The notes under the pieces were generated by a model, which was given only the letters and a program-made list of their open reading frames with translations, did no database searches and was not told where the DNA came from. From positions 434,001 through 498,000 of the forward strand of contig OZ025689.1 of the NCBI GenBank assembly GCA_964019335.1: a stretch of DNA of 64,000 nucleotides. Direction: 5' to 3'. A program made the translations under genes and the position numbers. Every line of letters begins with the position of its first letter. Positions within the stretch are counted from its first letter, which is position 1. The stretch is from Diplonema japonicum (lineage: Eukaryota > Protista > Euglenozoa: Diplonemea). Shown here in pieces: positions 12,124 through 13,110 of the stretch.

Positions 12124-13110
12124 TTAAAGATCAGGATTGGAGCAGCTCGGCTTGACAGAGGGATGGACACGGCAGAGAGGGGGTCTCGGGGAACAGCTGG
12201 CTTCCTCCACGGAGGTGGGTTTGCTGATGAAAAGACCGTGTTTGTTGCAATAAGAAAAAGCGGTAAGAGAGAGAGTTCCTGCAGGGACTTCAAACTGCAA
12301 GACGGCCTCGTCAGTAGGCAAGAGGGACACCGCACCCACAACCTCACCCTTATGGTCCCGCACGAAAATTCTCTCGATAAAGTGGACCTTCTGCATGTCA
12401 CCATCAGGCAGCATGGGATGGACATCCCACTTCTTACCTGAAATGGACCCGAGCCCCACCCTAACTGTGGCAGTGGTCCCATCAAGGGTGAGGACAGGCT
12501 GGTGCTTTGTGTTTTTTTCTGTTGGTTGGAAGGCAGATTTCTGGTTGTGCTCCGCAAGCTGTTTTCTAATGGTGTCTGCATCGATGACGTTGAAAGGGAC
12601 ACACGGGGCACCATCTTCGTGTGTGTACTCCGGACGCGAAAGCTCACAGAGAACACCCTCGAAGCCGCCTGCTTCCTCTTCGTCAAGTTGCGACACATCA
12701 CCTTTGTAAACACCGTGTTTGTTGCATACTGCGAATGGCCTCACAGACTGTACTCCTGCGGGTATCGCAAAGCTGAATGACGGGTTTGCGGCGTGCGTCC
12801 CAACAGACACCCACATTGCAAGTATGTTGCCACCTTCGTCCTCCGCCCACATTTTCTCAATGTAATGCACAAGCCCGGGGACGTTGCGTGACGTCACAGG
12901 GTGCGGGACAGTGATGCTTGCAGTTCCGTCAGCGACGGTAACCACTGGTATGTGCTTCGCGTTGTCCTTAGATTGCACAAAGGCTTCCCGCACGGTGTGC
13001 TGCTGCAACTGCTGTCTGTAAGCATCCGCACGCAGCGCATCAAACAAATCGCACCCTTCAGTCAGAAGGCCAGCGAACACGATACACACCATCATCAGCG
13101 TGGACAACAT
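12124..13110 (-). CDS. Secreted protein with two SOR/desulfoferrodoxin-like Fe-site domains (328 aa)
   Basis: Signal peptide MLSTLMMVCIVFAGLLTEG. Domain 1 is AKHIP..PHP..VHYI..CNKHG and domain 2 is TKHQP..VHPM..VHFI..CNKHG. Homologous to the repeats of the adjacent giant gene. Confidence 0.88.
   Translation of the reverse strand: MLSTLMMVCIVFAGLLTEGCDLFDALRADAYRQQLQQHTVREAFVQSKDNAKHIPVVTVADGTASITVPHPVTSRNVPGLVHYIEKMWAEDEGGNILAMWVSVGTHAANPSFSFAIPAGVQSVRPFAVCNKHGVYKGDVSQLDEEEAGGFEGVLCELSRPEYTHEDGAPCVPFNVIDADTIRKQLAEHNQKSAFQPTEKNTKHQPVLTLDGTTATVRVGLGSISGKKWDVHPMLPDGDMQKVHFIERIFVRDHKGEVVGAVSLLPTDEAVLQFEVPAGTLSLTAFSYCNKHGLFISKPTSVEEASCSPRPPLCRVHPSVKPSCSNPDL

Follow-up and report, generated by a model that had tools for sequence, protein, structure and literature searches.

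A stand-alone gene for a two-domain superoxide reductase-like protein beside a receptor-type adenylate cyclase in Diplonema japonicum

Superoxide reductases (SORs) reduce superoxide at a ferrous His4-Cys site and require an electron donor; they are treated as enzymes of the cytoplasm in anaerobic and microaerophilic organisms, only a few cases being eukaryotic (PMC3116461). The 2011 SORGOdb compilation counts three eukaryotic SORs out of 325 and, in the accessible part of the article, names neither a tandem nor a Sec-exported class (PMC3116461). A natural SOR lacking the Glu of the EKH motif is on record for N. equitans (cited in PMC9916283), SOR annotations in two diatoms and one haptophyte appear, unconfirmed, in a phytoplankton survey (PMC10128935) and the plant DOMON-b561 protein HYP1 passes electrons through the plasma membrane to acceptors on the outside (PMC10784544). 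A full-text search (desulfoferrodoxin with cytochrome b561; superoxide reductase with Diplonema), in which subscription journals were mostly left aside, returned no paper, the top-ranked titles of broader listings included none on a tandem SOR family of protists, and this family is apparently undescribed. What would be new here are tandem, Glu-less SORs of aerobic protists, predicted to enter the secretory pathway and linked to DOMON-cytochrome b561 (CYBDOM) wires.

The window analyzed here is a 64,000-nucleotide stretch of D. japonicum DNA (positions 1-64000), in which the open reading frames of more than 300 amino acids (aa) all lie on the minus strand and are separated by homopolymer-rich spacers. 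Several of its genes run into intron-looking poly-A/poly-T stretches, for instance that of a Ser/Thr phosphatase at 34553-35461. The protein under study, P0001, is encoded as follows:

12124..13110, minus strand: stand-alone gene of P0001, a 328-aa open reading frame with stop TAA, encoding a two-domain SOR-like protein
13054..13110, minus strand: predicted signal peptide (residues 1-19), the sole hydrophobic segment, cleavage site inferred
12646..13053, minus strand: SOR unit 1, helical cap (residues 21-38) and beta-sandwich, with K52, H53, H70, H82, C129 and H132
12172..12603, minus strand: SOR unit 2, helical cap (residues 171-188) and beta-sandwich, with K202, H203, H231, H243, C288 and H291
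12124..12138, minus strand: C-terminal tetrapeptide ending DL, with the stop; candidate ER-retention signal, enriched in the family
11800..12123, minus strand: non-coding spacer of 324 nt with long poly-T tracts, its frame open by chance

The exact 328-aa sequence is contained in EukProt, and another in-frame ATG further upstream would add 14 residues. The upstream neighbor (13183-14658, minus strand) encodes two Ras-like GTPase regions (Pfam Ras) and, by eye, an EF-hand-like C-terminus. Hydrophobicity in P0001 is confined to residues ~5-16 (Kyte-Doolittle mean 2.8, 11-residue), and there is no transmembrane helix. The protein has no C-terminal hydrophobic tail or GPI-like end, and its leader carries no twin-arginine (RR) motif. 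The hydrophobic N-terminus agrees with the signal peptide that a sequence-only reading of this DNA had placed ahead of the two domains, the signal peptide itself being predicted from this hydrophobicity.

Profile matching, alignment and structure prediction together show P0001, as modeled, to have two SOR folds and two intact His4-Cys ligand sets. The Pfam model Desulfoferrodox (PF01880) matches the protein twice (E 2e-10, 41.5 bits against a cut-off of 22.2), the NCBIfam SOR models remain under their cut-offs (TIGR00332, 30.6 versus 61.9 bits; TIGR00320, 26.6 versus 146.9) and a profile built from nine units of the window finds the T. pallidum SOR 1y07 (E 2e-7) with its ligands in register. 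By alignment, all ten putative Fe ligands of the two domains are present together with the Lys of the EKH motif (K52 and K202, each directly preceding the first His), as had been claimed from the letters alone, and the Glu of this motif is substituted by Ala51 and Thr201. The structure predicted from 40 aligned two-domain relatives (mean pLDDT 90.4, pTM 0.87), which supersedes a shallower model from 3 sequences (pLDDT 57), places a helix ahead of each beta-sandwich. When it was searched against 48,161 chains, the top four rows were all SORs: N. equitans 6gq8 (Z 11.3, rmsd 1.6 Å over 94 aligned residues) and Giardia 4d7p (Z 11.3, rmsd 1.5 Å over 88), both aligned with domain 2, desulfoferrodoxin 1dfx (Z 11.0) and T. 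pallidum 1y07 (Z 10.4). Below them came SoxZ (Z 9.1) and Ig-like folds (Z ≤7). Domain 1 displays the same strand pattern in the model as domain 2. Foldseek concurs with the SOR fold, albeit with one unrelated Ig-like chain first by E-value, and in the ESM Atlas the leads were all below 0.9, pointing to bacterial PF01880 clusters, with none for P0041. A desulforedoxin Fe(Cys)4 domain is absent, there being no paired CxxC/CC among the cysteines of P0001 (9, 20, 129, 155, 170, 288, 306, 313 and 323). C20 and C155, which flank unit 1, likely form a disulfide.

The sequence-only reading had placed P0001 directly upstream of a giant receptor gene, which is borne out by a gap of 324 nt to the likely receptor start at 11799, and had named as its own refutation the case that the open reading frame is only a 5' exon of that gene. 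An in-frame ATG immediately follows the P0001 stop and 108 open codons then enter the receptor, and introns with homopolymer runs are visible in the translations of the D. japonicum genome, both of which would suit an exon or a stop-codon read-through. In 20,000 run-level shuffles of the spacer, however, the same frame stayed open in 6% and any frame in 18%. In strain X1, moreover, an 8-nt deletion at 12096 disrupts the frame from P0001 into the receptor, and the X1 contig (1,114 nt, spanning 12047-13108) passes the P0001 stop by 77 nt without a joint; X1, like X2, is represented by contigs only, whose RNA origin is presumed. A full-length Trinity open reading frame of Diplonema ambulator (337 aa), 51% identical throughout, is orthologous to P0001, also has a short hydrophobic leader preceding its first Cys and stops at the same motif, but ends in DA and not DL. 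The receptor, for its part, has its own hydrophobic N-terminal leader from 11799. The X1 contig differs from the window sequence in 27 letters, of which 26 could be classified (20 silent, 6 replacement); none of the six replacements falls on a P0001 ligand, and pN/pS is 0.094 (binomial p 2e-8), so that purifying selection on P0001 is strong. The X1 deletion, the end of the orthologue and the receptor leader rule against the exon, and P0001 is shown to be a separate conserved gene.

Word-indexed homologue searches gave just 2, 3 and 4 proteins and badly under-sampled the family, whereas the profile of nine window units yielded 537 matches at E ≤0.001 among 1.84 billion representatives; the family counts that follow are drawn from the matches listed, 150 of the 537. 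Among these, the ligand set is complete in 269/354 domains spanning the site, and the 268 intact sites keep the Lys in 189 cases (absent in 79) and the Glu in 25. Loss of the Glu is family-wide; domains from bacterial loci, by contrast, have EK in 77/80. A Cys before and a Cys after the domain occur both in 124 domains, neither in 51 and singly in 24 and 24 (223 domains, odds ratio 11), a co-occurrence that disulfides would produce. Looking up 20 matches gave nine named eukaryotic records, from the diplonemids D. papillatum (3), Artemidia motanka, Rhynchopus humris and Flectonema neradi and from the choanoflagellate Bicosta minor, the diatom Rhizosolenia setigera and the dinoflagellate Biecheleria cincta. 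Two-domain forms are present in the diatom and the choanoflagellate. A secreted eukaryotic SOR-like protein had been called unusual; this needs qualifying, in that P0001 is no local oddity but belongs to a widespread protist family found in diplonemids, a diatom, a dinoflagellate and a choanoflagellate.

Long members of the family are frequently joined to haem domains. A DOMON, b561 or cytochrome b5 domain was found in 15 of the 26 long matches scanned (among the matches listed), 5 of these 15 with a cyclase, and the dinoflagellate protein P0006 carries SOR domains together with a DOMON. Every named cyclase fusion that could be placed is diplonemid (P0005, P0010, P0052). Elsewhere, SOR domains are fused to Reeler (P0099), Temptin C-terminal (P0106), phytase-like (P0032) and ephrin-receptor-like domains (P0006/P0008/P0012). 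A metagenome scan confirmed one locus out of 255 pattern matches, the L001 receptor, in which 8/8 SOR units are intact; its cyclase region (receptor at 104-6772, plus strand) lacks catalytic motifs, with no PF00211 match and no motif match.

In a FastTree phylogeny computed from 88 columns for 349 domains, a single clade held the 272 non-canonical ones, apart from 77 canonical bacterial domains (local support 0.895). The deepest branches of this clade are twin-arginine proteins, including two myxobacterial loci, which fall between canonical SORs and the protist family. These twin-arginine proteins (P0103, P0135, P0150, P0067, P0149, L003 of Nannocystaceae and L004 of Polyangia) have 1-4 intact domains; the lipoprotein SORs of L003 and L004 (around 4001-4357, plus strand) are without the EK motif. 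Since the tree rests on a short alignment from which archaeal, Giardia and Entamoeba SORs are absent, and on which no topology test was run, we claim no transfer donor.

The receptor downstream of P0001 and a paralogue at the other end of the window are organized as follows:

3730..11799, minus strand: receptor with signal peptide, 10 SOR-like units, DOMON, b561-like membrane domain, cytochrome b5 and adenylate cyclase
7162..11748, minus strand: SOR array of the receptor, 6/10 units with all five ligands
6679..6984, minus strand: DOMON of the receptor (Pfam E 8e-7, under the curated cut-off), with Met and His at likely haem-ligand positions
6109..6546, minus strand: cytochrome b561-like membrane domain of the receptor, with four conserved His
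5728..5940, minus strand: cytochrome b5 domain of the receptor, predicted cytosolic (Pfam E 6e-20)
4912..5457, minus strand: class III nucleotide cyclase domain of the receptor, adenylate-cyclase motifs intact
60578..63979, minus strand: paralogous receptor without SOR units, with DOMON-like region, b561, b5 and cyclase

A chain of DOMON, b561 and cytochrome b5 precedes the cyclase in both window receptors, with 10 SOR units in one versus none in the other, and these two receptor cyclases may be more striking than stand-alone P0001. The DOMON Met and His are invariant in all three aligned receptors, PF03188 matches the SOR-less paralogue and L001, and in the SOR-less paralogue both haem and cyclase motifs are intact. 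The same receptor architecture is seen in D. papillatum (KAJ9456028.1), Rhynchopus humris, Artemidia motanka and metagenome contig L001. Within the window array, units 3 and 9 have the last His replaced by Asp, unit 5 is without two ligands and unit 6 is degenerate; besides these 4/10 units, most of the tethered units of P0010 and P0052 have lost ligands. Adjacency of the stand-alone gene to a receptor gene is seen in the window and merely suggested in one other genome.

P0001 had been equated with one A+B unit of the receptor ectodomain. In register, it is 36.6-37.8% identical to array unit pairs (E ~1e-59), better than out of register (~34%, E ~1e-48), and its domain 2 clusters with B-type units (tree support 0.83). 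This part of the comparison stands, but domain 1 is equally far from A units (29-34% identity) and B units (29-33%) and lacks a loop common to both. The array units are up to 99% identical among themselves (65-100% alike in DNA), and a DNA repeat comparison detected no direct-repeat family connecting P0001 to the array. As judged from these identities and the missing repeat, P0001 is an old relative of the array repeat unit and not its recent donor, a role that the sequence-only reading had considered and that we reject; the stand-alone protein P0018 is also nearer to the array (49%) than P0001 (37%). P0018, a two-domain form ending in HDDL, is itself 93% identical to units 1-2 and 3-4 of the 2411-aa receptor P0153; both are ENA records, each listed with a 227,152-nt contig. 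To go by this identity, an array and a stand-alone ER form have recently exchanged sequence in that other genome.

The location of such proteins can be approached from their ends and from a paralogue. Euglenozoans mark proteins for ER retention by EL or DL at the C-terminus, with a mixed picture in free-living kinetoplastids (PMC10903960). P0001 ends in ...PDL, its one orthologue in DA and paralogues in HDDL, EEEL or TCEL. In a survey of 41 matches of 255-460 aa with a hydrophobic N-terminus (among the matches listed), 11 short forms, P0001 included, end in DL or EL (the background of [DE]L being 0.7% per position, kinship uncorrected), 10 have a GPI-like hydrophobic tail and 20 have other ends, these including some fragments or bacterial proteins. 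The D. papillatum two-domain paralogue DIPPA_01940 (339 aa, EL end, 32% identical to P0001) was detected as a protein among the 4,870 of a subcellular proteome (PMC12697944). DIPPA_14385 is absent from the proteome file of that study. By our own calculation, the 33-fraction profile of DIPPA_01940 runs closest to those of 6 ER-lumen-type proteins (correlations of 0.77-0.83) and of one glycosome marker (0.73), then to three lysosome markers (0.52-0.57) and three cell-membrane markers (0.30-0.57), the lowest values belonging to clathrin (0.12) and three cytosol markers (-0.02 to 0.12); the profile is noisy and zero-imputed, the 17 comparison proteins were hand-picked with no mitochondrial marker among them, and the classifier of that study put 2 of the 6 ER-type proteins with mitochondria. 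It is a safe result that DIPPA_01940 is expressed and not cytosolic. For P0001, the ER lumen and the cell exterior appear about equally probable: the claim that it is secreted is supported as regards a non-cytosolic location, but the protein is perhaps ER-retained because of its ...PDL end and the strong enrichment of DL/EL in the family.

We give an even chance to the reading that P0001 is an extracytosolic SOR recharged by DOMON-b561 haem wires. The protein would enter the secretory pathway by its predicted signal peptide, and each His4-Cys site would likely bind Fe(II) and convert superoxide to hydrogen peroxide. Electrons would pass from a cytosolic reductant through cytochrome b5, b561 and the DOMON haem to the SOR iron. 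In the receptor, the whole of this putative chain and the adenylate cyclase lie on one polypeptide, of whose tethered array free P0001 would be the soluble counterpart. Rubredoxin is not known to be available outside the cytosol, and this, together with the repeated fusion to outward haem wires, favors recharging by DOMON-b561. The SOR role is further suggested by the fold Z-scores, the ten ligands, selection sparing these ligands and the fractionation of the paralogue. Against it count the NCBIfam scores below cut-off and the many tethered units with lost ligands, from which it follows that the domain is kept without catalysis too. A broader reading, held tentatively and with somewhat less than an even chance, is that tandem SORs constitute an unrecognized extracytosolic reductive superoxide defense in aerobic marine protists of several supergroups, whether ER-luminal, GPI-anchored or arrayed, and fed by DOMON-b561; diplonemids would have joined the wire to adenylate cyclase, making a receptor for superoxide or redox state, and P0001 would be the free catalytic unit of the system.

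The main rival, which we regard as unlikely but the best of the alternatives, is metal capture, in which the site would be reused for Fe(II) or another metal delivered by a DOMON-b561 ferric reductase and held or passed on in the ER or at the surface, while the cyclase would report metal status. Another metal could indeed occupy a His4-Cys site, and the reduction of ferric and cupric substrates by DOMON-b561 proteins is established (PMC10784544), an activity that fits iron handling equally well. An array of 4-15 sites, or a form displayed at the surface by a GPI-like tail, would suit capture from dilute seawater, the Glu is lost and nearly a third of the intact sites (79/268, as above) have dispensed with the Lys. 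The exact SOR ligands and the Lys are nevertheless kept in most domains, which a plain chelator need not do, and seawater iron would be out of reach for ER-retained forms.

Less likely still, and in our view improbable, P0001 would be a signaling partner, a diffusible redox shuttle, ligand or decoy that docks on receptors, above all on the paralogue lacking SOR units, and tunes cyclase output; the shuttle or ligand role had been proposed by the sequence-only reading. Its gene adjoins that of a receptor sharing its domains, haem and cyclase motifs are intact in the SOR-less paralogue, and elsewhere P0018 nearly matches units of the receptor P0153. Two-domain forms are found in the diatom and the choanoflagellate, yet the named cyclase fusions that could be placed are all diplonemid, and retention-like ends would hold many forms in the ER. 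That P0001 is no separate gene at all, but a 5' exon, a read-through extension of the receptor or a remnant of the array in decay, is very improbable, the exon and read-through versions being largely refuted by the frame break, the joint-free contig and the orthologue.

If the preferred reading of P0001 as a wire-fed extracytosolic SOR is true, extracellular superoxide in the sea would have a candidate sink that is biological and reductive, or the ER lumen a defense against superoxide, and CYBDOM wires would gain a defined protein acceptor. P0001, soluble and of 33 kDa, is the family member most easily expressed and assayed. Since D. papillatum has paralogues and can be tagged, location and knock-out work is possible there.

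Compared with known systems, P0001 is closest to 1Fe SORs or neelaredoxins (PF01880; 4d7p, 6gq8, 1y07), with which it shares the beta-sandwich, the His4-Cys set, the Lys before the first His and a C-x-x-H-G motif. It differs from them by its tandem arrangement, by an extra N-terminal helix and flanking Cys in each domain, by the lack of Glu, by its predicted signal peptide and by the aerobic marine hosts of the family. Unlike desulfoferrodoxin (2Fe-SOR), it has no N-terminal desulforedoxin domain. The TAT-SOR class of SORGOdb and the myxobacterial twin-arginine lipoprotein SORs resemble P0001 in the predicted export of a SOR domain, but their Tat and lipoprotein export contrasts with the ER route predicted for P0001, and the helical cap and flanking Cys were not seen in these proteins by alignment. 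The membrane module of the receptor is that of a CYBDOM such as Arabidopsis HYP1, with haem ligands kept, whereas known CYBDOMs, as described in PMC10784544, carry no SOR domains, cytochrome b5 or cyclase. P0001 itself, unlike a CYBDOM, is without DOMON or b561, and for such a detached ectodomain the GPI-anchored, DOMON-only AIR12 is a precedent.
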